A stretch of 64,000 nucleotides of DNA from an uncultured Alphaproteobacteria bacterium. GTDB taxonomy: Bacteria > Pseudomonadota > Alphaproteobacteria > CAVTAV01. A program made the position numbers and the translations under genes. Every line of letters begins with the position of its first letter. Position 1 is the first letter of the stretch. Positions 39,325 to 64,000 of the stretch are shown here, piece by piece. The stretch lies in the NCBI GenBank assembly GCA_963732795.1, contig CAVTAV010000003.1, positions 66,050-130,049 of the forward strand, written 5' to 3'. The notes under the pieces were generated by a model, which was not told where the DNA came from, did not search any database, and saw nothing but the letters and a program-made list of their open reading frames with translations.

Positions 39325-39993
39325 ATGCCTAGAGGTGTCGTCGATTACAAGGGTATGAAAACGCCCGAAGCGGAAGCTCTCCGGAACAGTCAGCCGGGCA
39401 AGGACATTCCCTTCAAGATCCAGAAGATCGGCCATGTCGTGCTTCGGGTGAGCGACCTGAAGCGGTCGGTCAAATTCTACACCAAGGTATTGGGCTTCCG
39501 GGTGTCCGACGTCTATCCGCCGACCATGGTTCCGGGCGGCATGGTGTTCATGCGCTTCGGCAACGACCATCACGGCGTGGCGCTGGTCGGCGGCGCGAAG
39601 ACGCCGATGGCCAATGACGAGCTTCACCATATGGCCTTCGAGGCCGCGACCCTCGACGAAGTGTTCCGGGCCCGCGACTTCCTGATCAAGCATAAGGTGC
39701 CGATCGATTTTCACGGCCGCCGCCGGGCAGGCTGCCAGATCGCGGTCGAATTCTGCGATCCCGACAACCACCATCTCGAAATCTTCTGGGGCCTCGATCA
39801 GGTCGGCTCCGACCAGGCGATCCGCCCGCCGCAGGAGTGGAAAGAGGTGTTCTCCCTCGAAGAGGCCGTCAGAAAGTCGCCTCCGGGCCAGAATCCGGTT
39901 CTGTTCGACAAATCCCTGATGAAGAAGGGCCGGGTCGCCACCAAGCCGAAGGCGAAGCCCAAGGCCAAGCCACGAGCTAAAGCGAAGAAGTAA
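39325..39993 (+). CDS. VOC (glyoxalase/extradiol dioxygenase) family protein with a basic KPKA-repeat tail
   Basis: 222 aa with VOC blocks IGHVVLRVSDLKRSVKFYTKVLGF and HHMAFE...DPDNHHLEIF. The C-terminus is KPKAKPKAKPRAKAKK. Confidence 0.8.
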   Translation: MPRGVVDYKGMKTPEAEALRNSQPGKDIPFKIQKIGHVVLRVSDLKRSVKFYTKVLGFRVSDVYPPTMVPGGMVFMRFGNDHHGVALVGGAKTPMANDELHHMAFEAATLDEVFRARDFLIKHKVPIDFHGRRRAGCQIAVEFCDPDNHHLEIFWGLDQVGSDQAIRPPQEWKEVFSLEEAVRKSPPGQNPVLFDKSLMKKGRVATKPKAKPKAKPRAKAKK

Positions 39994-40009
39994 GCCTCTT
40001 CGATTTCAC

Positions 40010-40089
40010 GTCATCGCGAGGCGCGAAGCGCCGTGGCGATCCAGGTAGGCTGGATTGCCGCACTCCCTGCGGTCGCTCGCAATGACGGC
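40010..40089. repeat. MITE/REP-like palindromic element, family 2
   Basis: CGTCATCGCGAGGCGCGAAGCGCCGTGGCGATCCAGG..CTGGATTGCCGC...GCTCGCAATGACGG. It lies between two convergent gene ends. A second copy is at 18558-18645. Confidence 0.85.
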
Positions 40090-40090
40090 T

Positions 40091-42714
40091 CTATAGCTCC
40101 CCGCGCCGCTGGGCGCGGGCTGCGGCGGGGCGCTTGCCGATGGGCGAGGGCAGGAACCGGCCGAGCGGCGGGAAACGCACTTCGCCGAGGCCTTCGATCG
40201 CGTACATCACGGTCGCTGCGACGAAGGGGATGCTCTGGGTCAGGAGCGTGATCGCGAAGAGTCGTCATGACCGAAGCCTTGGTGGTGTTGGTGGCATAGA
40301 GCAGGGCCGCGCCGCTCAGCAGCAGAACGCCGAGGATGGATTCGGCAATCACCGGGTTCTTGCGCGCCGGGCCGCCGATGCCGCCTTTTTCGGTGCGGAG
40401 GAACGGCAGGTTGTCCTTCACGAAACCGCGCACCACCGCCACCGCCACCGTCCATTGCAGGCTCGACGCGGCCAGCGCCGCCCCGACGATCTGCCGCGCG
40501 GGCAGCTTGACGCGGGCGAGATAGAGAATGGCGCAGTGGAGGAAGTTCGCGCCAAAGGCGACCAGGATCGGCAACGTGAAGGGAATCGTCGGGATCATCA
40601 CCTTGTCGGTGAAGATCAGCGGCACGCACAACAGGTTCATGATCGCAGCCAGCACGCCCATGGCGTCGGCGAACCAGTAGCTCCATCCCAGCACGAACTG
40701 GCGCTTCTGCTCGCGGCGGAGCTTGCTCGCGCCGGGCAGCATCTCGCGCCAATGCTTGCGGATGATCTGGGTCGCGCCATAGGCCCAGCGGTGGCGCTGG
40801 GTCTTGAAGGCCATGTAGTTGTCCGGCAGGAGACCATGGCCGTAGCGACGGTTGGTATATTGCGAGGACCAGCCGGCCTCCAGGAGGCGCAAGCCCAGCT
40901 CGGTGTCCTCGGTGATGGTGTCGGTCTGCCAGCCGCCGACCGCCTCGAAGGCCGAGCGGCGCAGCAGCAGCATCGTGCCGTGCGCGACGATGGCGTCGTC
41001 CTCGTTGCGCTGGACCATGCCGATATCGAAGAAGCCCGAATATTCGCTGTTGAGGAAGGATTTCAGCAGCGAGGCATGGCCGTCGCGGTGGTCCTGCGGC
41101 GCCTGGAGGAGGGCGAGCTTCGGCTCCTGGGCAAAATGAGGGCACGAGGTCGGCAAGCCAGTTCGGATCGACGACGTAATCCGCGTCGAGCGTCGCGATG
41201 ACCTCGGCATCCGCCGCCATATAGGGCAGCGCCATGTTGAGCGCGCCCGCCTTGAAGCCGGAGACCTTGGGGAAATTCAGGAACTTGAAGCGCGGGCCGA
41301 GCTCGGCGCAATGGGTCTCGATGGGCTTCCAGTACTCCTCTTCCGGCGTGTTGTTGATGATCACCAGCACCTCGAAATCCGGGTAATCGAGGGCCGCGAC
41401 GCTGTTCAGCGTCTTGATCAGCATCTCGGGCGATTCCTTGTAGGCCGCGATATGGATCGAGACCTTGGGCAGTCGGCCTGACCGCGCGTTTCGAGCGGTC
41501 GACCTGGATCAGGCGGCGCGGCTCGCGGCCAAGGGTGACTGCCGTGACCTCCTCGATCTTGACCAGCGTCATGACGGTCAGCGGGATCATCAACAGGAAG
41601 CCGATCGCCCCAGGCGATCGCCGAGCCGAGATTGAGGTAGTTCTCGACCGGGTAGAGCGCCGCCACCGCGACACCGGCCGACAGCGCGTTCGCCGCCACC
41701 GAATAGGCCATGGCCTGACCGAACAGCGGCTTCCGGCGGCGCAGCGAGAAAAGCGTGATCAGCGCGCCGAAAGCCACGGCCAGCCACATCGCGTTCGACT
41801 TGTGGGGCGTCTGGACGATGCCGGTCATCGGGAATTTCGGCGTGCGGTCGAAATTGTAGAGGCCCCAATAGGCGCCGACGCTGCCTTCGGCGCCCTTCCA
41901 GGGCTGATCGAAGGCCTCGATGACGTTGTAACTGATCTGGTGCATGCGCGCCGCCTTGACGAAGGCGCGGACGGTCTCGGCCTCGGCGAGCACATTGGGT
42001 TGGGCCGCAAGGTTGTTATAGCCCTGGCTCGGCCAGCCGAACTCGGCGATCACGATGCGTTTGCCGGGGAACGCCTTCTCCAAAGCCTTGTATCGGTCGA
42101 TGGCATGGCCCACTGCGGCCTGGGCCGGGATGCCTTCCCAGTAGGGCAGGATATGGGCGGCAATGAAATCCACATGGTCGGCGAGTTCGGGATGGGCGAT
42201 CCAGGTATCCCAGGTCTCGCCGGTGCTGACCGGCACGTCGACGCGGGAACGGACCTCGTCCAGCATCTTCTCGAGGTTCGCGACCGATCTGGTCCTTACG
42301 GAGGATCGTCTCGTTGCCGACGATGGCCGAGGTCACGTTGGTGTTGTTGTTGGCGACCTTGACCAGGGCGTCGATCTCCTTGCGGTTCGCCTTGTCCCAT
42401 TTGTTGATCCAGGCGCCGGCCGTGACCGAGAGGCCGTCCTTCTCGGCGATCTTCGGCACTTGGGCATAGGGGCCTATCGAGGAATACAGGCGAATGCCGC
42501 GCACGTGCTCCCGGAGGAGCGCGAGGTCGCTTCGAATCTGGCTGGTCAGGCTCTCGGGCGCGACCTTGTCGGGGTATCTCAGATCGGCCGGCGTGTAGGA
42601 CACGGAGTCCATGCGGCCGAAAACGTCGGGCGGAGCGCTCAATTCGTGGAGGGAACTCCAGACTGTGCACTGCAAAATCGCCGCCAGAACCGCCGCGGCG
42701 AAAACGTTCTTCAT
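40091..42714 (-). CDS. ndvB: NdvB-like cyclic beta-(1,3)-glucan synthase (GH17 - GT2 fusion); five frame breaks as sequenced
   Basis: The segments assemble to about 874 codons. The GH17 part contains VGNETILRKDQ, AAHILPYWEG and IVIAEFGWPSQG, followed by TM helices. The GT2 part contains VSIHIAAYKESPEML, DYPDFEVLVIINN, TLDADYVVD, TEDTELGLRL and QRHRWAYG, followed by C-terminal TM helices. Breaks lie near 42283, 41606, 41475, 41135 and 40255. The stop TAG is at 40091-40093. Confidence 0.8.
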
Positions 42715-42915
42715 TGTGACCGCCCTGTTATGGCCGACTGAAGCGCCGGTCGTCTTTACCCAGATATTGGGTCCTGTAGGCGAAAGATCGGCTCAATCAT
42801 GACAATTTTATGGCTATGTCAGTAGACGGCCGAAACCGGCCATTGGCAAGCACGAAATGCTGCGCTGCACAATATGTTTCTGTGATCGGCGAGTCGAACG
42901 TCGGTCGGGCGTGGC

Positions 42916-44986
42916 CTAATTGACGATTAGACTCTGACGGATGTAGCTGGCGACATCCTGAAGATCGTCGGGGGACATCGTGTCTTTGAACGACGGCATG
43001 TCGTTCTTGCCCGAGCTTGCAACGGTCATGATTCCAGTGATGGTGAGCTTGACGGTGAGCGCCGCCCCGCCACCATGACCGCCCTGTCCGTCGATACCGT
43101 GGCAAGGTTGACAGACCTGTGCGTAGATCGATTGGCCATGACTGAGGTCGGCCGTGCGACCCGGGGTTGGACGAGGCGGCGTCGAGGCTGTGTTGGCGCT
43201 TGTTTGGGTGAAGGGCGGAAGAGGGCCGATCTTGCCGTCCAGCGAGAACATCCAGACGCTGTCGCCATGTTGGCGTCCGAAGACGTACGAACCGGCGGCA
43301 AGCACCACCACATACTGATGGCCCTTATACTCGAAGGTGCTGACAGGGGCATTGACCGATGCATCGGTCTGAAACTCCCAGAGCTTGTCACCGCTGGCGT
43401 TGTCGAGCGCCGTCAGCCGACCGTCGTTGCGTCCGACGAAGACGAGCCCACCCGCCGTGACCACCGACCCATTATAGCATCCGCCGTTCCATTGCTGACG
43501 CCAGACAAGCCGGTTGGTCGTGACGTCCAGGGCGGCAAAGATGCCCCGCGTTGCAACGTCGACATGGATGAACTCTCCGCCTCGATAGGATTGGCCCCGC
43601 GTCGGACCGCTGACCGCGACGCCGCCGCGAAAGCCCGAAATGCCGTCATTGGCGCAGACATAGAGGAGGTGGCTCGCCGGGTCGTATGAACTCGGCGGCC
43701 AGTTCACGCCGCCGACCGCGCTTGGCTTGGTGATGACGTCCTGATCCCAGTAGGGTGTAAAGATCCGTCCCTGGTTCACCAGACGATAGCCTTCTGGCAC
43801 AATATCGATGACCTGCGGGACGATTGCATCGCCACGCGGATAGGGCTGCGTGGCAGCCGTGTGTTGGCGAGGCTCCTGGGCGACAGGGCGCTCTTCGATG
43901 CCGATCAGAGGCTTACCGGTTGTCCGATCGAGTATATAGGCCCAGCCCGTCTTGGAGACCTCAACCAGCCCCTTGCGGAGCTTGCCGTCGATCATGACGT
44001 CGAATAGCACGACGGGATTCGGAGAATCATAGTCCCACAGGTCGTGATGCACCTGTTGGAAGTGCCAGCGGTATTTTCCGGTTTTGGCATCGACGGCCAC
44101 AATCGACGACGTGAACAGGTTATCACCGGCTCGGACTGCGCCATTGAGGTCGGGTCCGGCGTTTCCCGTGGAGTAATAGATCATTCCCAGATCCGGATCG
44201 AGCGCGGGCGTCTGCCACACCGACGCGCCGCCATATTTCCAGGAGTCGTTGTCCGCCGGCCATGTCTCATGGCCGAATTCTCCGGGGCCGGGGATGTTAT
44301 AGAATGTCCATTTGAGCTTGCCGGTCTTGGCGTCGAAGGCCTTTACACGACCGCGCGTGCCTTTGTCTGCGCCCGCTACGCCGGTGATGACGAGGCCGTC
44401 GTAATACAAGGGCGCGCTTGTGATCGTGTAGCCGTCTTGCCAGCGTTCCACTTGAACCGACCAGTCGACTTTCCCGGTGCGCTGATCGAGAGCGACCAGC
44501 TTACCGTCGAGTTGGCCGATATAGATCCGACCGTCGCCGAGCGCCACGCCCCGGTTCGTCCACCCGCAGCAGACCGCGTCGTTTTCCTCGTCGAGATCGG
44601 CCCTGATAGGTCCAGAGAATGGCGCCGTTGTCCACGCCGATCGCAAACACATCGTCCGCGCCAGTGGACATATAGATCACGCCGTTATGGACGATGGGCT
44701 GTCCTTGACCCGAATATTTCGCGCCGTTGCCCGAGCCGCCAAGCTTGATATGCCATTCGGCGCGCAGTCTCGCGACATTGGCACGGTCAATCTGGTCCAG
44801 CGGCGAATAGCGTTGATTGAACGTGTTGCCGCCATTGGTGATCCATCCGTCCCGCGGCGGGACGGTGAGTTGCTCGGCGGAGAATGCCGGGGCAGGGGTG
44901 ATTTCTGGCTCGGCCGCGAAGGCCGGACCTAAAAGCGTCAGAACCGCGAAAACCGCACACAGAAAACCCGCCGAAAACGACCTCAT
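42916..44986 (-). CDS. PQQ-dependent dehydrogenase with a C-terminal cytochrome c domain (quinohemoprotein); one frame break
   Basis: The Sec signal is FLCAVFAVLTLLGPAFAAEP. It has a PQQ propeller with the vicinal Cys pair AVCCGW and a C-terminal CQPCHG heme site. The break lies near 44607. The span equals 3n+1. Confidence 0.85.
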
Positions 44987-45028
44987 ATGCCCCCCAAATG
45001 TGTCGCTCCCCGCGCTGTGGCGGTGTTC

Positions 45029-46511
45029 CTATGACTGTTGCCGAGCCGCCAGACTATGGAGCAGCTCTCCGGTTTCCGGATGCGGATCGGTGCCGCCGAG
45101 CCGGCCGAACCGCGGGATCCGGCCCATGGCGGCGTCCTCGGCGGTGTAGCCCCGGCCGTCCTTGGCGTTCACGTCCGCGTGGTTCTTGACCAGAAGCTTG
45201 ATGATCTCGTTCCAGCCCTGAGTTGCTGCCCCATGGAGCGCCGTCTGGCCGTTTTGGGCCTTGGCGTTCACGTCGGCGCCCCGGTCGATCAAGAGTTTGA
45301 CCGCCTTGATCGCCTGGTCCTCGGTAAGGAAGCGACCACGGGTGTCGATGCCGGTCTTGCCGAAGCCCGAGGCCGCCATCAGCGGCGTCGTGCCCTGCGA
45401 GGTCGGCAGGTCGATCAAGGCGCCGTGGTCGAGAAGCGCGGTCATGGCCGGGATATCGGCGGCGCGCGCGGCCCTGAGCAGCGGCGTCGAGCCATAGGTC
45501 AGGATCCGGTCGGCGCCGCGATCCGGGCCGAGGGCGCGATAAGGCGGCCATAACTTGAGCTGAAGATTCGGGTTCGCGCCCGATTTCAGCAAAAGACCGA
45601 TCATCTCGATCCCACTGGTCTTATCGAGCGAGGGAAGGTCGGGCCGGCCGCCATGGGGGAGCGTGTTGTAATCGACCGCGGCATAGAGCGGATTGCGGCC
45701 CCAAAGATCCCATTTGTTGGGATTCGCACCGTGTGCCAAAAGATATTTCGCCGTGTCGAAATGCGCGTTCAGGAGCGCCATCAGCAGCGGGCTCACCCCG
45801 TCCGGATCGGTCAGATTGACATTGGCTTTCGCGTCGAGAAGCGCCTTGGCGCATTCGGTGCAGCCCTCGCGAGCCGCGAAAAGCAGGGGCGTCAGGCCGC
45901 CGGTCGGAAGCTGTTTCTTCGCGGTGCTCCGCCGTAACGGGCCGTTTCCAGTTATGGATCGTGGACTTGGCGTCGACATCGGCGCCGCGTCCGGCGAGAA
46001 GCTTGACCATGGCCGGACGGCTCTCGGCGGCGGCCCACATGATCGCGGTCTGGCCCATCCAATGCTCGGTCTTGTTGACGTCCGCGCCGTGCTTCAGGAG
46101 CACCTTCGCCGCCGCGACATTGTCGGTGCGGGCGACGACCATCAGGGCGGTCTGGCCGTCCGGATTGGGAAAATCGACATGCGCGCCGGCCTTGAGGAGC
46201 TTCTCCAACACCGTCACGTTGCCGGTGATGGCGGCTTCCGACATCGGGCTCGCGCCGTAATTATTGGTCACCAGCACGTTCGCGCCGGCCTTGATCAGGT
46301 CCTCCACCATCTCCGTGTCATTGAGGTGGATCGCCCAAATCAGCGGCGTCGTCCCGTTCGACTCCGGCTTGTTGACGTCCACATGCTTGTCGATGAGCTG
46401 AAGCGCCGCCGCCCGGTCGCCCGATTTGATGGCGCCGATCAGGGATTCGTCGGCCCGCGCGACGGAGGAGCCGGCAAGAGCGAGAACGGCAACGACCAGC
46501 CATAGCTTCAT
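45029..46511 (-). CDS. Exported ankyrin-repeat protein; one frame break
   Basis: The signal peptide is MKLWLVVAVLALAGSSVARA. There are multiple ANK repeats (G.TPL..A......V..LL..GA.VN). The break lies near 45925. The span equals 3n+1. Confidence 0.85.
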
Positions 46512-46512
46512 G

Positions 46513-47838
46513 TCAGATCTCCGTGATCTCGCCGGTGCTGTCGCCGACGGATTCGAGATCGACGCCGGCGCGGTGCAGGGCGGTCAGAAGCAGGTTCGCG
46601 ACCGGCGTGTAGTCCTTGGCCACCACATGCTGGTTGCCCTTCAGCTTGCCGCAGCCGCCGCCGACTATGGCGGTCGGGAGCGGGAAGTGGTCGTGGGCGT
46701 TCGAATTGCTCATATTGCTGCCGTAGAGAAGGATGGAGTGATCCAGCATCGAGCCGTCGCCGTCCGGCATCTTGGCGAGCTTGTCCACGAAGCGGGCGAA
46801 CAGCTTGGAGTGATAGGTCTGGATCTTCACCAGCTTGGCGATCTTCTGGGCGTTGTTCTGGTGATGCGACAGCGGGTGGAAGGCATCCGGCACGCCGATC
46901 TGGTTGTAGGTCATATTGCTGACCTCGGCCGCCACCATCATCGTCGCCACCCGGGTCATATTGGCCTGATAGGCGAGGGCGATCATGTCGAACATCAGGT
47001 TCAGATGCTCCTCGAACGAGCTCGGAATGCCCGCGGGGACGGTCGGTAGATCCAGCTTCGAGAGGTCGCGCGCGGCCATCTTGTTCACCCGCCGCTCGAT
47101 CTCGCGCACGGTATCGAGATAGTCGCTCAGCATCGCCTGATCCGACGCGCCGAGAGTTTTCTTCAGGTCCGAGGCCTGGGCGGCGACCAGATCCAACAGG
47201 CTCGTCGTTTCGCTGGTCAGCTCCTTGCGTTCCTCTGCCGTGTCGCCCTGGCCGAACAGGCGCTGGAACAGGAGCCGGGGATTGACTTCCATGGGCAAGG
47301 GAGTGGAGGGCGTGCGGAAAGAGATCGTCGCGCCGTAGCTGCAGCCGTAGTTGCGGTCGCAGGCACCGGCGCCGACGGTCTTCGAATCCTCCGTCGCCAC
47401 CTCGATGGAGGGCAGGGGCGTATCCTGGCTGATATGGAGCGCGGCCATCTGGTCGATGGTCACGCCGCCATAGGGATCGTGGCTCGCCCGCGGCGTGACC
47501 GCGCTGAGCCAGGTGCCGGGCGTGATGGCGTGCACGGGACCGGCGGCGTGCTTGTTTTCGAGGCCGGTGACGACGGTGAGCTGCTTCTTGAACGGCTCCA
47601 ACGGTTTCAGGATCGGCTTGATGTCGAAGTCCGCGCCGGTCTTGTCCGGGGTCCACTGATCCATGATCGCGCCGTGCGGAAAGTAGATGAACATCATATG
47701 GGGCTTCGGCGCGGCCGCGGTCTTGGCGATGGCCGTGCCCGCCGGAACCATCGCCTCCAGAAGCGGCAGGGCCACACTCGCGCCCATGCCTTTGAGGACC
47801 GTGCGGCGGTGCAGGTGCTTCTTGGTCAAATAGAACAT
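46513..47838 (-). CDS. DUF1552-type protein with a twin-arginine-like signal
   Basis: ATG at 47838 (MFYLTKKHLHRRTVLKGMGASVALPLLEAM). It carries the family-like motif FHPLSHHQNN. Intact, 441 aa. Its stop is 1 nt from the downstream ankyrin start. Confidence 0.75.
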   Translation of the reverse strand: MFYLTKKHLHRRTVLKGMGASVALPLLEAMVPAGTAIAKTAAAPKPHMMFIYFPHGAIMDQWTPDKTGADFDIKPILKPLEPFKKQLTVVTGLENKHAAGPVHAITPGTWLSAVTPRASHDPYGGVTIDQMAALHISQDTPLPSIEVATEDSKTVGAGACDRNYGCSYGATISFRTPSTPLPMEVNPRLLFQRLFGQGDTAEERKELTSETTSLLDLVAAQASDLKKTLGASDQAMLSDYLDTVREIERRVNKMAARDLSKLDLPTVPAGIPSSFEEHLNLMFDMIALAYQANMTRVATMMVAAEVSNMTYNQIGVPDAFHPLSHHQNNAQKIAKLVKIQTYHSKLFARFVDKLAKMPDGDGSMLDHSILLYGSNMSNSNAHDHFPLPTAIVGGGCGKLKGNQHVVAKDYTPVANLLLTALHRAGVDLESVGDSTGEITEI

Positions 47839-47890
47839 ACCGCGTCTCCATCCGCCCGCGTCCGATCGCCCCAAACGACCGGGCGGGCCT

Positions 47891-50324
47891 CTATTGCGCC
47901 GAAGCCTCCTTGGTCGGCTTGGTCTCGCTCTTGGCCGGCACCGTTTCCTTCAGGAAAGGCTCGCTCTCCACGATGCCCATCACGAGCGACGAGAATTTGT
48001 AGTCGTCCTTGGCCGCGTCGCGCACGATCCGGCGGATCCACGGCATGTCGTAATACTGGATGCTGCGGCCGAGGCCGTAGGTCATCAGCTTCTCGGTCAT
48101 GGTCTGGACGAATTGCTCGGGCTCGCCCATCAGCGCCTTGCGCAGGTCGATCGGGCCCGAGACCGGCGTGCCGTCGGCAAGCTGGCCCGAGGCGTCGATC
48201 GGGGTCGCCGTCTCGCGGTCCTTGACCCGCCATTCGCCAATCGCATCGAAATTCTCGAGCGCGAGACCCAGGGGATCGAGCACCCCGTGGCAGGCATTAC
48301 AGGACGGGTCGGTCCGGTGCTGGACCATGCGCTCGCGCACGGTTTGCGCGGTCACGCCGTCGACATTCTCGACCAAGCGCTTTGACGTCCGGCGGCGGCG
48401 CATGGGGCGGCACGCCGACGACGTTCTCCAGGATCCACTGACCGCGCAGCACCGGCGCCGTCCGGTTGGCGTAGGAGGTGGACATCAGCACCGCGCCCTT
48501 GCCGAGGAGGCCCCAACGGTTCGGGTCGCTAAGCGTCACCTTCCGGAAGCGGTCGCCCCGCACGTTCTCGATGCCGTAAAGAAGGGCAAGGCGCTCGTTG
48601 ACATAGGTGTAGTTCGCGGTCAGGAGGTCGAGGACGCTGCGGTCGTTCTGGAAGATGTCGCCGACCCAGAGCGCCATCTCGGTCTTGAAGTCCTCGCGGA
48701 AATTCTCGTTGTAGCTCGGGAACAGGTTGCGGTCGGGATCGACCCGGTCGAGGGCGCGCACGCCGAGCCACTGGAAGGCGAAGTTCTTGACCAGCGCCTC
48801 GGCCTTGGGATCGGCCAGCATCCGCTTGACCTCGGCTTCCAAGACCTTGGGGTCCTTCAGCTTGCCGGCGGCGGCGGTTTGCAGAAGCTCGTCGTCGGGG
48901 ATCGAGCTCCAAAGGAAGAAGGAGAGACGCGAGGCAATTTCGAGGTCGCTCAGGCGGTAGACCGCGCCCGGCGCAAGGCCCTCCGGCGGCGGCTCGGCGC
49001 GGTACAGGAATTTCGGGCTGACCAGGATCGCCATCAGCCCCGAGCGGACGCCGGCTTCGAATCCGCCGAGGTCGTGGCCATGCGCATAGAACTCCATCGG
49101 CGCGGCGATGTCCGCGTCGGTCACCGGCCGGCGGAAGGCGCGGCGCGCGACGGTCGAGAGGATCTTGCGGGCGCAGGGCGTCTCCTCGTCCGCCGAGGCG
49201 GGATGGCAGAGGAAGATGCGCTGGCGGCTCGGGGTCTCGCCGACGCCCTCGGATTGGAACGGGCCGGCGACCTCGACATGGCGGACGCCCATGATGACGT
49301 CGAAGCCGCCGCCTTCGCGGAACGGCTCCAGGGTCTCGTCGGATTCGGCGAAGCTGCGCCCGACGAAGGTGACGCCGACCTTATGCGGCCCGGCCTTCAC
49401 ATCGACCTTGATGTGGTTGAAGTATTTGTTGATCTCGGCGACGGCCTGGGCCTGGTTCTGGTCAATGTTCTTCAAGTCCGCCTCGCCGCCGACGTCGCGG
49501 CCGAACACTTCGTTGCCGTCGATGGTGATGATCAGCCGGTGCTTGTATTCGACGCCGAGGACATAGCCCGCCGTCGCCACCTTGCCGAGATTGAACTCAT
49601 AGGTCCCGTCGACGGGGAAGAAATGGGTGAACAGCATGCCGCCCCGCGTGCCGAGGGGCAGGCCCTCGATATGGGCGTTCTGATCGGCGTCCTTTGGCGC
49701 GAAATAGGTATGGAAGTCGGTCTTGGCGGCGGGATTTCCGACCGCCTTGGTGGCGACGACGCGCGCCGCCGAGATGTATTGGTCGAGAAAGGCGGGCGAG
49801 ACCTTCAGCACGTCGGCGATATTGTCGAACCCGTCGCTCTCGTCGTCGCTCGGCAAAAGGTTGGTCACATCGACATCGAGATGGAGGAGGTCGCGGATCG
49901 CATTGGCGTATTCCGCGCGGTTCATCCGATGCAGCGCCACCCGGCCGGGATTGGGGTTGGCGAACGCCGCTTCGTCGAGCGAGGTCTCCAGCCAATTGAT
50001 GAATCCCTGGCGGGTCGCGTCGTCGGGCGCGGGCTTGCCGGGCGGCGGCATCAGGCGGCCGCTCAACTTACGGATCGCCGCCTCCCAGATCTTGGCGTCC
50101 TTGGGGACCTCCTGGGGCACCATCGTGTCGAACGCGATCTGGCCCTTCCAGTCGGTATAATTGTGACACTCGACGCAATATTTGTTGAGCATGGCGAATT
50201 CTTTCTCGCCGATGCTTTTGGGAGCGGGCTGGGTGTCGGCGGCCAAGGCAGGCGCGGCAAGGATCGGCGCGGCCAACAGGCCCGCCCCGGCGGCAACCGC
50301 CAACAATGCGCTGCGAAACCTCAT
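47891..50324 (-). CDS. Large exported heme-binding protein of the DUF1592/DUF1595/DUF1588/DUF1585 (PSD/PSCyt-like) type; one frame break
   Basis: It has a signal peptide, an N-terminal CVECH and a C-terminal CNACHG heme c motif. Conserved blocks are FFLWSSIPDDELL, FAFQWLGVR and LTANYTYVNERLA. The break lies near 48378. The span equals 3n+1. Confidence 0.75.
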
Positions 50325-50340
50325 CTCCCCCGCCGGCTCC

Positions 50341-51273
50341 CTAGATTACACCCGGATATTCCCGAATATGCCCCCACACGCCCTTATAGGCCAGCCGCAA
50401 GAACATCTCGGGGTCGCCCCAGCGGGCGTCGAATTCCTTTGTCGGCTTGGCGGCGACCATTTCGTCGACGCTCTTGCCGTCCTTGAAGAACTCGCCGATC
50501 CGATGATCCATCTCGGCGAGCATGTCGTGCTGCAGCTTAAGATCTTCCTTCGATTGGGCCGGGCCGGCCGCGGGGATGATCCGGGTCTTGTCGTCCGCGA
50601 GATCCATCATCGCCTTGGTGGCGTTGGCGAGGCCGCGGATCCATCCCCCCGTCGCCCAATCGGAGATCGGATAGGTCCCGACGGTCACGAGATCGCTCGC
50701 CGCGATCACATTCGAGTCCGGGAAGTGGATGAAGATGTCGCCGTCGGTGACGGCCTGGGGCACATGAACGTAGTCGATATGCTCGGCCCCGCAGGTCATC
50801 TTGCCGGAGGTATAGAACGTGTCGTTCGGGAGGGCATAATCCGGCCAGGGCTTATGCGTTTCATGGGCCCAGGGGATGTCGAAATCCGCGCCCATCCAGA
50901 GCCTCGTATTCTCATGGGCCAGGATCTTGACGCCGTCCTTGCCGAGCGCGTGGTTCGAGCCGGTATGCGGGGGCCGCCAGTTGGTGTTGAACAGCGCCAG
51001 GATCTTGCCGGCGGGCGATTGTTCTTTCGCGAGCTTGATCAGGGCCGCGGAGGGTCCCGGCAGGCCGCCATCCACCATCACGACGCCGTCCGGCGAGGTC
51101 GCCATCACGACATTGCAGCCGGCCCCCATAATTTCGACCAAATTGTCGGAAAGTCTTGTAACCGAAAGCGTTTCGGCATTGGGCTTCGCCCAGGCGCCGC
51201 GGGTCAATGCGATGCCCGCCGCGCCCGCCATGGCGGTTTTGAGGAATGCCCTGCGGCCCGAAATTTGTTCCAT
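50341..51273 (-). CDS. Exported metallo-beta-lactamase-fold protein with a degenerate metal-binding motif
   Basis: The Tat-type signal is SGRRAFLKTAMAGAAGIALTRGAWA. The MBL-fold layout is present, but the HxHxDH position reads NTNWRPPH. Confidence 0.7.
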   Translation of the reverse strand: MEQISGRRAFLKTAMAGAAGIALTRGAWAKPNAETLSVTRLSDNLVEIMGAGCNVVMATSPDGVVMVDGGLPGPSAALIKLAKEQSPAGKILALFNTNWRPPHTGSNHALGKDGVKILAHENTRLWMGADFDIPWAHETHKPWPDYALPNDTFYTSGKMTCGAEHIDYVHVPQAVTDGDIFIHFPDSNVIAASDLVTVGTYPISDWATGGWIRGLANATKAMMDLADDKTRIIPAAGPAQSKEDLKLQHDMLAEMDHRIGEFFKDGKSVDEMVAAKPTKEFDARWGDPEMFLRLAYKGVWGHIREYPGVI

Positions 51274-51450
51274 GTCGAAGGAGTTTACCTTAGAATCACT
51301 CTACCTTCCACCGAAAGGTGTTAAAATTCGGACTGGAATCCGACGCAAATTCGAGTTTAGAAAATCGCCCGTCTTGCCAGGGCGAGTCGATTTTCTGGTA
51401 GACTGATCCGAAGCGTTCGACTGATCAATATCCAAGGGGGAGTTACCAAG

Positions 51451-51948
51451 ATGAAGCGTTTCCTCAAGACGGGACCGGCGGCTGCGATCTCCGTGGCGGC
51501 ACTGGGGTTGCTCGGCATCGCGGCAGCGATGGCCGCGGATGCTCCCCCGACCCCCGAGGATCAGGCCAAGCATGCGGTCGATATCCGCCAGTCGATCCTG
51601 AAACTGCAGGATTGGAACATGGCGCCGATGGCCAATATGCTGCGCCGTCGCGCGCCATTCGACGCCAAGCTCGTCCAGCAGAATGCCGAGCGGATCGCGG
51701 CGTTGTCCGAGATGCTTCCCGACGCCTTCAAGCCCGATACGACGAAGTTCGACGTCAAGACCGACGCGCTGCCGCTGATCTGGATGCAAAAGGACGACTT
51801 CGACAAGAAGGCCGCCGCTCTCACCGAGGCAGCCAAGGCCCTCGCCATGACCGCCGCCGGCGGCGACCAGGGAGCGACTTTCCCTGCCATCGTCACCATG
51901 GGCAAGGCCTGCGGCGCCTGCCACGACAAGTTCAAGAAGCAGGAATAG
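51451..51948 (+). CDS. Class II cytochrome c (cytochrome c' / c-556 type)
   Basis: 165 aa. SD AAGGGGGAG, a signal peptide ending AAAMAA, a four-helix-bundle-type sequence, and the C-terminal heme site CGACHDKFK. Confidence 0.88.
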   Translation: MKRFLKTGPAAAISVAALGLLGIAAAMAADAPPTPEDQAKHAVDIRQSILKLQDWNMAPMANMLRRRAPFDAKLVQQNAERIAALSEMLPDAFKPDTTKFDVKTDALPLIWMQKDDFDKKAAALTEAAKALAMTAAGGDQGATFPAIVTMGKACGACHDKFKKQE

Positions 51949-52195
51949 AGGCAGGCTCTAGCTGCATTTGAAGTCGTCGTCGCTGATGGGATGGCAGAGG
52001 TCGGGCCGAGACGCAAGCTTGCTACAATGATCCAGTGGGCGAATTCGGTGCTTGTTTCTGTGCCTTCAGTGGACACGGAGGATTGGCGATTTTAGCGAAA
52101 TTCGAAAGTCACGACTTCATGATCTGGTCGTTGTGTCTCAGAGATCCTATGATCGTGTGATCTGCATCGTGACTTTCGGAACATCGGGCGTCCAA

Positions 52196-53122
52196 ATGGG
52201 ACCAGCGTCAAAATGTCCAATTTGCGGAGGCGATGACCTCCGACCGTACTACATCGGAAAGGCCACTCGATCGTCGTCATCCAGGGCGCTAGACAACAGC
52301 GAGTGGCATCTCGATAAGTGCGCGACGTGCCAGCATGTATTCGTAAATCCTACGCCGCCACCAGACGTTCTGGCGCAATTCTACAACTCCGAATATGACG
52401 CGTACGCGGCTGACCATGGGATGCGCGAGAACTTCGACGCTGCCATTTCTCATGCGAAATCAACAGGGACCTATCGGCACGTCGAAATCCGGCCAGGGAT
52501 GCGAGTCTTGGATGTGGGTTGTGGCGGGGGCTCTTTTCTGCGCGTTGCCATGGCGCTCGGTGCGGAGGTTATGGGGGTTGAGCCCTCCCGGCATGGCGTG
52601 GCCATGTGCTTGGAGAATAAAATTCCGGTCTTCCACGGAGATCTGAGTGCCTTCAACAAGACCAATCCTGCGCAATTCGATCTGGTTACGAGCAATCACG
52701 TGATCGAACACCATCCTAGCCCTGTGCTCGTCTTAAGTGAGATGCGTAGCCTCGTCACCGAGAACGGCCGGATTTGGTTCGCCGTCCCTAATGCCGATTG
52801 CTTCTTCGCCCGCCGTCTCCGTGACCAGTGGCACAGCTGTGATTTGCCCGTGCACCTGCAGCACTTTTCAAAGGAATCCGTGAAAACCGCGATTTTATAC
52901 GCAGGTCTGAAGGTCGAGGCGATAACGACCGAATCAGACAACTCGATGCTGTACTCGCTTAGCGTTTTGCTTAGGTCGCGGCTCTATGTGCCGCGCCAAA
53001 TTACGAATATGGCCTTTAGCAAGTTGCTCAGAAAAGACGGCCCTCTTGGTCGTCGTATTGATGCCGCAGGCCAAGGTGAGGCGATCCTTGTCCGTGCCAG
53101 ACCAAATACACACGCGGCATAG
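52196..53122 (+). CDS. Class I SAM-dependent methyltransferase with an N-terminal Cys4 zinc-ribbon
   Basis: ATG at 52196 (MGPASKCPICGG...CATCQH). The SAM motif is VLDVGCGGGSF. The gene is visibly lower in G+C than its flanks. Confidence 0.8.
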   Translation: MGPASKCPICGGDDLRPYYIGKATRSSSSRALDNSEWHLDKCATCQHVFVNPTPPPDVLAQFYNSEYDAYAADHGMRENFDAAISHAKSTGTYRHVEIRPGMRVLDVGCGGGSFLRVAMALGAEVMGVEPSRHGVAMCLENKIPVFHGDLSAFNKTNPAQFDLVTSNHVIEHHPSPVLVLSEMRSLVTENGRIWFAVPNADCFFARRLRDQWHSCDLPVHLQHFSKESVKTAILYAGLKVEAITTESDNSMLYSLSVLLRSRLYVPRQITNMAFSKLLRKDGPLGRRIDAAGQGEAILVRARPNTHAA

Positions 53123-53130
53123 ATATTCAC

Positions 53131-53543
53131 CGGACGCTCCCGGGACCCCCGAGGACCAGGCGAAGGCGGCGGTGGATATCCGCCAGTCAATCCTGAAGCT
53201 TCAAGGCTGGGCGACGGAGCCGATGGCGGGCATGCTGCGCCGGCGCACGCCGTTCGACGCCAAGCTCGTCCAGCAGAATGCCGAGCGGATCGCGGCTCTG
53301 TCCGAGATGCTTCCCGACGCCTTCAAGCCCGACACCACGAAGTTCGACGTCAAGACCGACGCGCTGCCGCTGATCTGGATGCAAAAGGACGACTTCGACA
53401 AGAAGGCCGCCGCTCTCACCGAGGCAGCCAAGGCCCTCGCCATGACCGCCGCCGGCGGCGACCAGGGAGCGACTTTCCCCGCCATCGTCACCATGGGCAA
53501 GGCCTGCGGCGCCTGCCACGACAAGTTCAAGAAGCAGGAATAG
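53131..53543 (+). pseudogene. 5'-truncated second copy of the class II cytochrome c gene (no native start or signal peptide)
   Basis: It aligns with 51538-51948. The last 96 codons encode the identical protein with 5 synonymous differences. The first ~40 codons differ at 8 residues. Homology starts 8 nt after the methyltransferase stop. Confidence 0.7.

Positions 53544-55864: not shown

Positions 55865-57056
<1,192 letters not shown>

Positions 57057-61016: not shown

Positions 61017-64000
<2,984 letters not shown>

Follow-up and report, generated by a model that had tools for sequence, protein, structure and literature searches.

A conserved cassette of four exported proteins, combining DUF1552, two-haem PSCyt/PSD, MBL-fold and ankyrin-repeat genes, in an alphaproteobacterial genome and distant soil bacteria

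Within the window (the whole 64,000-nt stretch of DNA analysed), five minus-strand genes follow one another with gaps of 16, 52, 1 and 42 nt, the ankyrin gene starting 1 nt past the DUF1552 stop codon, and a plus-strand cytochrome c' gene lies 177 nt from the start of the MBL-fold gene (Table 1). The ORF coordinates confirmed this layout as it had been described in the original prediction, and a Pfam profile search confirmed the domain assignments of all six proteins. Promoters are presumably located in the divergent intergenic region, where a scan for the sigma-70 consensus gave no match. A nitroreductase gene adjoins the cytochrome c' gene in the window and in one other locus (L089).

Table 1. 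Genes and intergenic region of the locus, in window coordinates.
Feature	Coordinates	Strand	Basis
MBL-fold protein, Tat-signal, 310 aa, first cassette gene	50341..51273	-	ORF + Pfam Lactamase_B
Two-haem PSCyt/PSD protein (DUF1592 type), Sec-signal, 810 aa corrected	47891..50324	-	two ORF pieces, Pfam
DUF1552 (HXXSHH) protein, Tat-signal, 441 aa, intact	46513..47838	-	Pfam PF07586
Ankyrin-repeat protein, Sec-signal, 493 aa corrected	45029..46511	-	two ORF pieces, Pfam Ank
PQQ quinohaemoprotein alcohol dehydrogenase (type II-like), 689 aa corrected	42916..44986	-	Pfam PQQ + Cytochrome_CBB3
Cytochrome c' (class II cytochrome c), 165 aa, divergent from MBL gene	51451..51948	+	Pfam Cytochrom_C_2
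Divergent intergenic region MBL / cytochrome c', 177 nt	51274..51450	.	ORF coordinates

The MBL-fold and DUF1552 proteins carry the twin-arginine motifs SGRRAFLK and HRRTVLK, respectively, in agreement with the Tat export proposed for them, and the other four proteins of the locus have Sec-like N-termini (all judged by motif and regular expression only). The motifs CVECH, CNACHG and FHPLSHH reported earlier were also found in the window proteins. Pfam recognised Lactamase_B in the MBL-fold protein (32.9 bits), PF07586 (HXXSHH) in the DUF1552 protein (292.8 bits), Cytochrom_C_2 in cytochrome c' (112.3 bits), and PQQ (3.4e-90) and Cytochrome_CBB3 domains in the PQQ enzyme. In the two-haem protein it detected PSCyt1 (weak), PSD3, PSD5, PSD4, PSCyt3 and PSD2. 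The two haem motifs, C50VECH and C675NACH in the corrected sequence, are both retained in 65 of 67 orthologues.

The five genes had been read as continuous, which holds for their positions and domains; three of them are not ORFs, their frameshifts having been silently bridged. The DUF1592-type, ankyrin and PQQ genes contain one frame change each (at ~48378, ~45920 and ~44605 of the window). The first is divided into ORF pieces in different frames (48297-50324 and 47891-48403) with the PSCyt3 model split across both, and the second into two pieces with Ank matches on each. That three of five genes are broken might suggest pseudogenisation of a decaying, non-functional operon, but several observations make this extremely improbable. 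When the window is aligned with a 98.65% identical contig (L001), in which the three genes are intact (493 aa for the ankyrin and 689 aa for the PQQ protein), every break comes down to one inserted base; the 493-aa ankyrin orthologue is also intact in L002. Over 9.3 kb the window shows 8 insertions and 0 deletions compared with L001, no slippery sequence was found at the three break sites, and the corrected proteins are 99% identical to the L001 products over their full length. Since rpoB and tuf are likewise frame-broken in the window and the genes are intact in the 98.65% identical strain, the three frameshifts are, on this sequence evidence, assembly or sequence errors and not decay.

A comparison of gene order in 83 genome and metagenome loci, with denominators that differ by gene, revealed the two-haem PSCyt/PSD gene with DUF1552 in the same order and strand in 74 of 77 loci, a gene for an ankyrin protein of ~490 aa downstream of DUF1552 in 75 of 77, and an MBL-fold gene in the same orientation in 65 of 73. 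The MBL gene varies in position, preceding the haem gene in some loci and in others following the ankyrin gene or separating it from DUF1552, while remaining part of the cluster. Reciprocally, a scan starting from the ankyrin protein found DUF1552 directly upstream in 49 of 56 loci. The called cassette genes of three loci (L002, L003 and L090) are separated by 1–54 nt, with one 4-nt overlap. This four-gene linkage exceeds chance: some 90% or more of the 80 species-level genomes show it, and they belong to several phyla, with Alpha- and Gammaproteobacteria and Acidobacteriota among the groups represented. The conserved unit consists of four exported proteins (MBL-fold, two-haem, DUF1552 and ankyrin) and is common to distant soil bacteria. 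No other gene family recurs beside the cassette in these loci, the next commonest neighbour being the PQQ enzyme (15 of 83).

The original prediction suggested a periplasmic electron-transfer or oxidation machine. Applied to all six genes, this model would have the PQQ quinohaemoprotein at the centre of a single machine for alcohol/aldehyde oxidation, with the remaining proteins as its electron acceptors and scaffold. Conserved linkage exists, also reciprocally, for the MBL, DUF1592-type, DUF1552 and ankyrin genes, but it does not extend to the other two. In the window the PQQ gene shares the strand of the cassette at a gap of 42 nt, and a PQQ clade marked by an invariant HHDIWDYDSPNP adjoins the cassette in 9 of 66 loci from different lineages (within 10 kb in 7 of 48). 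However, the PQQ gene is missing from the other 57 of the 66 cassettes with enough downstream sequence, and cytochrome c', found within 10 kb in 4 of 48 loci, is missing from 44. Both are lineage-specific optional neighbours outside the core. The best PDB match of the PQQ enzyme is, over its full length, the type II quinohaemoprotein alcohol dehydrogenase 1kv9 (1.4e-89). It shares with this type (ADH IIB 1kv9, qhEDH 1kb0, ADH IIG 1yiq) the eight-bladed PQQ propeller, vicinal cysteines and a C-terminal cytochrome c domain (CQPCH); that type II enzymes have a cytochrome c domain of their own also speaks against the six-gene machine, which we consider quite unlikely. Unlike the type II family, the window enzyme scores below the TIGR03075 cut-off (428.9 against 480 bits). 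Its HHDLWDYD motif, conserved within its clade, has an Asp two positions past the catalytic Asp (WDYD) where 1kv9 has Thr (WDFT); an Asp at this position is a mark of lanthanide-dependent PedH/XoxF enzymes (PMC5487730).

The best NCBIfam matches of the MBL-fold protein, SoxH-related proteins of 'quinoprotein relay systems', would bring it nearer to such a machine. With 38 and 35 bits against cut-offs of 280 and 300, it is not a member of these families. Its HxHxDH zinc motif is degenerate in the window (N98-W-R100-P-P102-H103), which had been missed earlier, and position 175 is Val both in the window and in an independent contig (L086), whereas 68 of 70 orthologues have His. The canonical H-H-D-H set, lost in the window, is intact in 16 of 70 orthologues; the Tat RR motif occurs in 60 of 70. 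The Sox thiosulfate-oxidising system comprises the SoxAX dihaem cytochrome, the SoxB hydrolase and the SoxH MBL-fold protein. By analogy, the cassette may resemble it as a set of periplasmic dihaem c-type cytochrome, metallohydrolase and Tat-exported MBL-fold protein, but neither its haem nor its hydrolase subunit showed homology to SoxAX or SoxB, and it has no SoxYZ carrier.

The ankyrin protein also has parallels in known systems. P. aeruginosa AnkB is encoded beside the catalase KatB. The cassette protein is far larger than these catalase-linked ankyrins (493 aa, ~13 repeats, with conserved inter-repeat loops), and its partner, compared by gene neighbourhood, is a c-type cytochrome/DUF1552 pair instead of a catalase. 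In C. jejuni, the ankyrin gene Cj1386 lies directly beside a haem protein, the catalase KatA, as in the cassette. An ankyrin protein that takes part in the delivery of haem to catalase has been described (Flint et al. 2012, J Bacteriol 194:334, as cited in PMC4518328). Two contigs (L124 and L161) keep the MBL-fold, haem and ankyrin proteins and lack DUF1552, which would tie ankyrin to the haem subunit.

The precedent of haem delivery to catalase, together with catalase-ankyrin pairs and cytochrome c' as an NO binder, offers an analogy for a stress-defence or haem-handling module directed at periplasmic NO, reactive oxygen or haem. Such a role, which we judge improbable, would accommodate the neighbouring cytochromes: in 12 loci, 8 from genomes and 4 from metagenomes, the ankyrin gene is followed by b561 and c' genes, and the divergent MBL/cytochrome c' arrangement is also found in L086 and L020. 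It would likewise accommodate the nitroreductase gene and the globin and Tll0287-like genes upstream of the cassette in L003. Nevertheless, most loci have no neighbours of this kind, those that occur vary with the lineage, and Pfam detected no catalase, peroxidase or NO-reductase domain in the cassette. Moreover, cytochrome c' and b561 form a gene pair that is common independently of the cassette.

In the literature searched, we found neither an experiment on any core component nor a published function for one. The association of PSCyt3/PSD (DUF1587-DUF1595-DUF1592-DUF1588-DUF1585) with DUF1552, both built of 'Planctomycete-specific' Pfam domains (PF07626/37/31/27/24 and PF07586), recurs here with the same architecture and adjacency and with scores far above Pfam thresholds. 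Nevertheless, the window host is an alphaproteobacterium whose close relatives in this respect are Gammaproteobacteria and Acidobacteriota, not Planctomycetes-Verrucomicrobia-Chlamydiae (PVC). The pair is so annotated in Planctomyces sp. SH-PL62, without ankyrin or MBL genes, whereas that of the window is extended by both. In Verrucomicrobia, PSCyt3 genes pair with a family of unknown genes, and PSCyt proteins sometimes carry carbohydrate-binding modules (PMC5615132). PVC bacteria also possess DUF1501 and PSCyt1/PSCyt2/PSD1 clusters, with a four-gene form that includes a WD40-repeat protein, and these PSCyt relatives carry laminin-G/F5_F8 domains (PMC3542564). Like the cassette, they pair a large protein bearing cytochrome c motifs with an uncharacterised Tat-signal protein, and in some lineages they also include a repeat protein with a presumed role in protein-protein contacts; unlike it, they use different Pfam families throughout, have no MBL gene, and fuse the WD40 domain to PSCyt1 where the cassette has a separate ankyrin protein.

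Sequence searches linked DUF1552 to no solved structure or other Pfam family. In an AlphaFold model (pLDDT 74.4, pTM 0.79, with 85 of 441 residues, about one fifth, below pLDDT 50), all top 50 Foldseek PDB matches were LtaS, sulfatases, phosphonate monoester hydrolases, YejM or alkaline phosphatase. The best was LtaP (4uop, E 9e-6, probability 1.00), TM-scores were modest (0.35–0.45), and an earlier, poorer model gave the same structural families. From its model, the DUF1552 protein looks like an alkaline-phosphatase-superfamily (sulfatase/LtaS-like) metalloenzyme and not like a known redox fold. It would share the overall fold of LtaS/LtaP, S1 sulfatases and phosphonate monoester hydrolases, but it differs from them in having no detected sequence similarity, no C/S-x-P-x-R nucleophile motif in the window protein, a long helical insertion (~residues 201-291 of the model) and an obligatory haem-protein partner. 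Invariant His and Asp residues across the family include H103, D129, H321, H325 and H382, and the Tat RR motif is present in 86 of 86 orthologues. We know of no redox member of the superfamily, which counts against the complex proposed below; the haems could be structural or sensory.

Such a fold could also serve hydrolytic scavenging, in which DUF1552 and the MBL-fold protein would be periplasmic esterases freeing phosphate, sulfate or alcohol from organic esters, the PSCyt/PSD protein would mainly bind substrate or anchor the enzyme, with haems that are structural or sensory and do not carry electrons, and the PQQ enzyme, where present (it is directly downstream in the window lineage), would oxidise the freed alcohol. 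The MBL-fold protein weakly resembles several hydrolases (CphA, chlorothalonil dehalogenase, SoxH-related families), and this, like the carbohydrate-binding and laminin-G/F5_F8 domains of PVC relatives, is consistent with such a module. We nonetheless hold it somewhat unlikely, because most MBL orthologues, including the window protein, have lost the catalytic motif, DUF1552 has no conserved sulfatase-type Ser/Thr/Cys nucleophile motif (the invariant residue past strand 2 being His103), Pfam found no carbohydrate-binding domain in the window two-haem protein, and the strong conservation of both haem sites would be unexpected if they were purely structural.

We tentatively lean towards a complex in the periplasm that unites a metalloenzyme with a cytochrome and has an ankyrin partner of its own, and to which the PQQ dehydrogenase and cytochrome c' would be optional. 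DUF1552 would be its catalytic, metal-containing subunit, loaded and folded in the cytoplasm before export, which would explain the Tat signal, and would form a stoichiometric complex with the two-haem protein; we infer the physical association of the cassette proteins from gene order only. Through the haems, the metal site may be connected with cytochromes that are either soluble or membrane-bound. Candidates in the window are cytochrome c' or the PQQ enzyme's own cytochrome c domain, and elsewhere cytochrome b561 with c', or a small cytochrome c. Conserved haem motifs and recurrent small c-type and b561-type cytochrome neighbours make such an electron-transfer link plausible. In Sphingobium herbicidovorans pMSHV, for instance, a distant DUF1592/DUF1552 pair is followed by a cytochrome c and a cytochrome b protein. 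That these neighbours occur in a minority of loci counts against the complex. The ankyrin protein would be a dedicated binding partner, probably of the haem subunit, that helps with its assembly, its stability or the handling of haem, and the MBL-fold protein would be an auxiliary subunit in which the classical di-zinc hydrolase site would be dispensable. The predicted fold of DUF1552 would suggest as substrate a phospho- or sulfo-ester or some other anionic group of a related kind, and its obligatory haem partner would suggest a redox step coupled to this chemistry.

Five co-directional genes lie on the minus strand at 42916–51273, with gaps of 16, 52, 1 and 42 nt, and a cytochrome c' gene begins 177 nt away on the plus strand; all these spacings are exactly those of the original prediction. 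Pfam profile searches upheld the domain that it had assigned to each of the six products, and the motifs CVECH, CNACHG and FHPLSHH were all found. Twin-arginine motifs are also present, as proposed, at the N-termini of the MBL-fold protein (SGRRAFLK) and the DUF1552 protein (HRRTVLK), and the four remaining proteins start with Sec-like hydrophobic leaders. From these signals, the MBL-fold, two-haem, DUF1552 and ankyrin-repeat proteins, which form the core discussed below, are predicted to be exported, two of them via Tat. A scan for promoter and terminator consensus sequences detected no promoter-like sites, and terminator-like sites occurred at the level found in shuffled sequence, which made them uninformative.

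Features of the locus and its surroundings (positions in the window)
Feature	Position	Strand	Domains (Pfam)	Frame-breaking insertion
Glycosyltransferase gene	40011-42332		GT2; faint N-terminal GH17-like match below Pfam cut-off	five
PQQ quinohaemoprotein gene	42916-44986	-	PQQ propeller, cbb3-type cytochrome c domain	44605
Ankyrin-repeat protein gene	45029-46511	-	ankyrin repeats	45920
DUF1552 gene	46513-47838	-	HXXSHH (292.8 bits)	
Two-haem protein (DUF1592-type) gene	47891-50324	-	PSCyt1 (weak), PSD3, PSD5, PSD4, PSCyt3, PSD2	48378
MBL-fold protein gene	50341-51273	-	Lactamase_B	
Cytochrome c' gene	51451-51948	+	cytochrome c'	
Class I methyltransferase gene	52052-53122			
Second cytochrome c' copy	52986-53543			
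Stretch aligned with contig L001	39990-49342			
Frame-broken stretches	39990-49342; 55865-57056; 61017-63998			

One property of the locus had been overlooked: the five genes are not all open, since those for the two-haem, ankyrin and PQQ proteins each change frame once. Over the aligned stretch the window shares 98.65% identity with a contig (L001) from the NCBI metagenome-assembled genome GCA_964493815.1; on that contig the ankyrin (493 aa) and PQQ (689 aa) genes are both intact. The alignment contains eight single-base insertions in the 9.3 kb of the window and no deletions; three interrupt the genes of the locus and the other five lie inside the downstream glycosyltransferase gene. Once the three extra bases were removed, the products matched their L001 counterparts at 99% identity. 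Two genes in other parts of the window are interrupted as well, rpoB running over three frames and tuf over two. Because these housekeeping genes are broken too and the near-identical L001 lacks the extra bases, we attribute the breaks to errors in the sequence or its assembly that affect the window throughout, and to neither pseudogenisation nor recoding. Programmed frameshifting was ruled out on these two grounds and by the lack of any slippery sequence at the insertion sites. Pseudogenisation, under which the three frame changes would be genuine lesions, is effectively excluded by the intact strain and the housekeeping breaks. ORF-based readings of this window thus require frame correction. 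The glycosyltransferase gene (872 aa) lies directly downstream of the PQQ gene, and a gene occupies the same place in L001 (6626-9244) and, as judged by position only, in a second related contig (L002).

A scan with a DUF1552 alignment, using one genome per GTDB species, retrieved at least 575 relatives, of which we used the best 80 loci (63–72% identity to the window protein). These came from Gammaproteobacteria (many Steroidobacteraceae, some Pseudohongiellaceae) and Acidobacteriota (Bryobacterales, Terriglobia), together with one alphaproteobacterium and one bin labelled Acidimicrobiia; all are metagenome-bin labels, some of them doubtful ('Enterobacteriaceae', 'Acidimicrobiia'). We mapped the six window proteins onto the 80 loci and four metagenome contigs, counting tblastn matches, which are not curated gene calls, only where the flanking sequence sufficed. 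The two-haem protein was encoded directly upstream of DUF1552 in 74 of 77 loci, the ankyrin protein directly downstream on the same strand in 75 of 77, and the MBL protein upstream in 65 of 73. The linkage expected for all six genes therefore held for these four and failed for the other two: the PQQ enzyme (at least 50% identity) was adjacent, on the downstream side, in 9 of 66 loci and cytochrome c' lay within 10 kb in 4 of 48. Since both are absent from most cassettes, the six-gene periplasmic machine originally envisaged, read here as one for alcohol oxidation, appears quite improbable. Clustering of neighbouring ORFs at 83 loci recovered the core families in 74, 67, 63 and 63 of them, followed by the PQQ enzyme (15) and a cytochrome b561 (8), and no further recurrent family beyond the core. 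For a reverse test, metagenomes were scanned with an alignment of ankyrin proteins, which gave 80 loci (41–61% identity); 56 of these had sufficient upstream sequence, and in 49 of them a DUF1552 gene directly precedes the ankyrin gene. That the four genes form a unit is almost certain: they are tightly packed and inherited together across phyla. In the relatives, called genes are 1–54 nt apart or have a 4-nt overlap, spacings that would suit co-translation.

The MBL gene occupies one of three positions, either before the haem gene, between the DUF1552 and ankyrin genes (three loci) or after the ankyrin gene (six loci), and its retention despite these shifts argues for a functional tie to the cassette. 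DUF1552 relatives at 51–57% identity keep the haem and ankyrin proteins and lack the MBL gene, and both the ankyrin and the MBL gene are absent from a Planctomyces locus (29% identity). The haem/DUF1552 pair thus appears to be ancient; the ankyrin partner marks a large subfamily, and the MBL partner is confined to a smaller clade, to which the window belongs. Mean DUF1552 identity between Acidobacteriota and Proteobacteria-labelled sequences (64%) nearly equals that within the latter (66%), and the window protein is no nearer to one group than to the other, a pattern that fits transfer of the cassette between phyla. A plasmid search returned only distant relatives (at most 39% identity) and nothing showing the cassette to be plasmid-borne. 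A related three-gene form is encoded on a 1.3-Mb replicon of the cultured Novosphingobium sp. KACC 22771 (NZ_CP117882.1, 943.5–948.2 kb), in the same order and without an MBL gene (two-haem protein, 40% identity; DUF1552, 39%; a shorter ankyrin protein, 27%); the PLSDB gene table has no annotation for this stretch. Two complete cassettes occur in each of the MAGs HK-STAS-PROT-139 and SMAG_U4959, and three other loci have, beside the first set, a second haem-DUF1552-MBL set without ankyrin. This doubling looks like the paralogous expansion seen for substrate-specific loci.

The DUF1552 protein matches PF07586 (HXXSHH) far above the cut-off of 30 bits, over profile positions 2–307 of 307, with the FHPLSHH motif present. 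Its twin-arginine motif (HRRTVLKG, residues 10–17) retains the RR in 86 of 86 orthologues, and the Pfam TAT_signal match is weak (E 0.019). PDB sequence searches with the single protein and with a 50-member profile gave chance-level matches only, and 50 members compared with Pfam at E values up to 5 had no weak tie to sulfatase, DUF1501 or metalloenzyme families. A structural model built from a 52-sequence alignment (pLDDT 74.4, pTM 0.79) superseded a first one from a shallow alignment (pLDDT 58.5), which pointed to the same structural families. The 50 top Foldseek matches of the better model in the PDB all belong to the alkaline-phosphatase superfamily (best E 9e-6, TM 0.35–0.45), including LtaP/LtaS, steroid and carbohydrate sulfatases, choline sulfatase, phosphonate monoester hydrolases, YejM and intestinal alkaline phosphatase. 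On this one medium-confidence model, DUF1552 would have the core alpha/beta fold of alkaline phosphatase, sulfatase and LtaS, the fold of a hydrolase superfamily of metalloenzymes. Unlike in sulfatases, the nucleophile motif C/S-x-P-x-R is absent from the window protein, and among the orthologues it is not universal, with a loose match in 27 of 86. Ten polar residues are invariant across 50 diverse members (H103, D129, Q130, S144, D216, D233, R296, H321, H325 and H382); by a secondary-structure reading rather than a superposition, H103 appears to lie at the usual place of the superfamily nucleophile, just past the second strand. The main rival to a redox function, a purely hydrolytic ester-scavenging module in which the haems would be structural, agrees with the predicted fold, and we regard it as rather doubtful.

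The partner of DUF1552 keeps two c-type haem sites. All five domains of the series PSD3-PSD5-PSD4-PSCyt3-PSD2 scored above their cut-offs, PSCyt3 being split by the frameshift, and CNACH corresponds to residues 675–679 of the frame-corrected protein. Both CxxCH motifs are kept in 65 of 67 orthologues, the first followed by a conserved MPP; a PDB search with this protein found nothing. The ankyrin protein combines its repeats and signal peptide with strongly conserved non-repeat loops (e.g., WDxWGRxPLYAAVDYNTxPHGGRPD), suggesting a specific binding surface. Two loci, L124 (2378–6314) and L161 (2457–7413), encode the MBL, two-haem and ankyrin proteins and no DUF1552, with ~170–180 nt left in between, a layout which hints at joint action of the ankyrin protein and the haem subunit. 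There is a precedent for an ankyrin protein that takes part in delivering haem to catalase (cited in PMC4518328). In contrast to such AnkB/Cj1386-type proteins, the cassette ankyrin has no adjacent catalase: none occurred in the annotated neighbourhoods inspected or among the 12 recurrent neighbour families read. A stress or haem-handling role of the whole cassette, to which that precedent might point, is very unlikely in our estimation.

The MBL-fold protein passes the PF00753 cut-off (32.9 versus 22.7 bits) and is otherwise remote from every named family. Its best matches are SoxH-related models, and membership of the corresponding 'quinoprotein relay system' was rejected (TIGR04558, 35.1 bits with a cut-off of 300; TIGR04559, 38.3 bits with a cut-off of 280). 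In place of HxHxDH it has N-W-R-P-P-H, that is, N-R-P-H as ligand set, and Val175 replaces a His kept in 68 of 70 orthologues; this substitution is real, as an independent metagenome contig shares it. The full H-H-D-H set is found in only 16 of the 70 orthologues and N-R-E-H in 13, and H-H-A-Q, C-H-Q-H and C-D-D-H also occur, whereas D177, D179 and D205 are invariant. These proteins thus often seem unable to bind zinc in the classical manner, and the substitutions suggest that the metal site is non-classical or that the protein has no catalytic role.

The PQQ enzyme (PF01011, 3.4e-90; PF13442, 51.6 bits) aligns end to end with the type II quinohaemoprotein alcohol dehydrogenase ADH IIB (1kv9; 1.4e-89) and carries the type II features, namely the vicinal Cys-Cys in AVCCGWTNRG, the catalytic Asp in WDYD and, as CxxCH of the C-terminal cytochrome c domain, CQPCH; its score for the methanol/ethanol PQQ dehydrogenase model TIGR03075 (428.9 bits) is below the cut-off of 480.05. 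Several PQQ paralogues appear without the vicinal cysteines. The window enzyme differs from 1kv9 in having WDYD where the latter has WDFT, with Thr; it reads HHDLWDYD, and 12 linked orthologues from other loci read HHDIWDYD. The longer motif HHD(I/L)WDYDSPNP is invariant in the cassette-linked clade (the window and ten other loci). An extra Asp two residues past the catalytic Asp marks the lanthanide-dependent PedH/XoxF enzymes, PedH having Asp where PedE has Ser (PMC5487730), and the cassette-linked enzymes may be lanthanide-dependent quinohaemoproteins. Cytochrome c' (Cytochrom_C_2, 112.3 bits against a cut-off of 26.5) has CGACH near its C-terminus. It is duplicated, the second copy being 92% identical over 414 nt and devoid of a signal peptide, and the methyltransferase gene lies in a lower-GC stretch between the two. 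In three other metagenome contigs an identical cytochrome c' is immediately followed by a minus-strand gene (with a nitroreductase match in one of them, L089), so that the insertion or duplication is specific to this strain or assembly. In many Steroidobacteraceae-type loci a cytochrome b561 gene follows the ankyrin gene (twelve loci), and in most of these, L062 being an exception, a convergent cytochrome c' comes after it; no b561 gene was found in the window, where there is only cytochrome c'. Genes for a cytochrome c and a cytochrome b protein adjoin a distant haem/DUF1552 pair in Sphingobium.

We tentatively favour an architecture, plausible though short of probable, in which DUF1552 would be the catalytic metal subunit in complex with the two-haem protein, whose haems would link it to other cytochromes. 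The electron carriers beside the cassette differ by lineage: PQQ quinohaemoprotein, cytochrome b561 with c', or, next to the distant pair in Sphingobium, cytochrome c with the b protein. Given the two loci devoid of DUF1552 and the haem-delivery precedent, the ankyrin protein would act as a dedicated partner whose probable target is the haem subunit, and the MBL protein would be auxiliary. A more specific proposal, unlikely as it stands, is that DUF1552 and its two-haem partner constitute an unrecognised class of periplasmic redox enzyme, in which an anionic substrate would be oxidised or reduced at a His-rich metal centre borne by a scaffold of the alkaline-phosphatase type, and electrons would pass through the two c-type haems to respiratory cytochromes, with the ankyrin protein as a dedicated assembly or haem-handling factor.

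The haem/DUF1552 pair corresponds to the 'Planctomycete-specific' PSCyt3/PSD and DUF1552 couple defined in Pfam. According to He et al., PSCyt3 genes adjoin a family of unknown genes, their function not being known (PMC5615132), and Kamneva et al. described parallel clusters of DUF1501 with PSCyt1/2/PSD1, one form of which comprises four genes, among them one for a WD40 protein (PMC3542564). The literature searched mentions no ankyrin or MBL partners, no DUF1552 fold, and no experiment or functional study. The four-gene unit extends the known pair by these two partners, both new to that literature.

DUF1552 (at least 16,564 clusters at 50% identity) and its PSCyt/PSD partners are among the larger protein families without known function. 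The present analysis contributes a model-based assignment of DUF1552 to the alkaline-phosphatase superfamily, two additional partners that define a compact four-gene unit clonable and expressible as one piece, and signs of cassette movement between phyla, together with a related three-gene form in a cultured strain, KACC 22771, a possible experimental host. The function of these proteins is thereby directly testable outside the hard-to-handle Planctomycetes and, if the redox proposal were true, it would provide a function for the large 'Planctomycete-specific cytochrome' families, unexplained since their definition.
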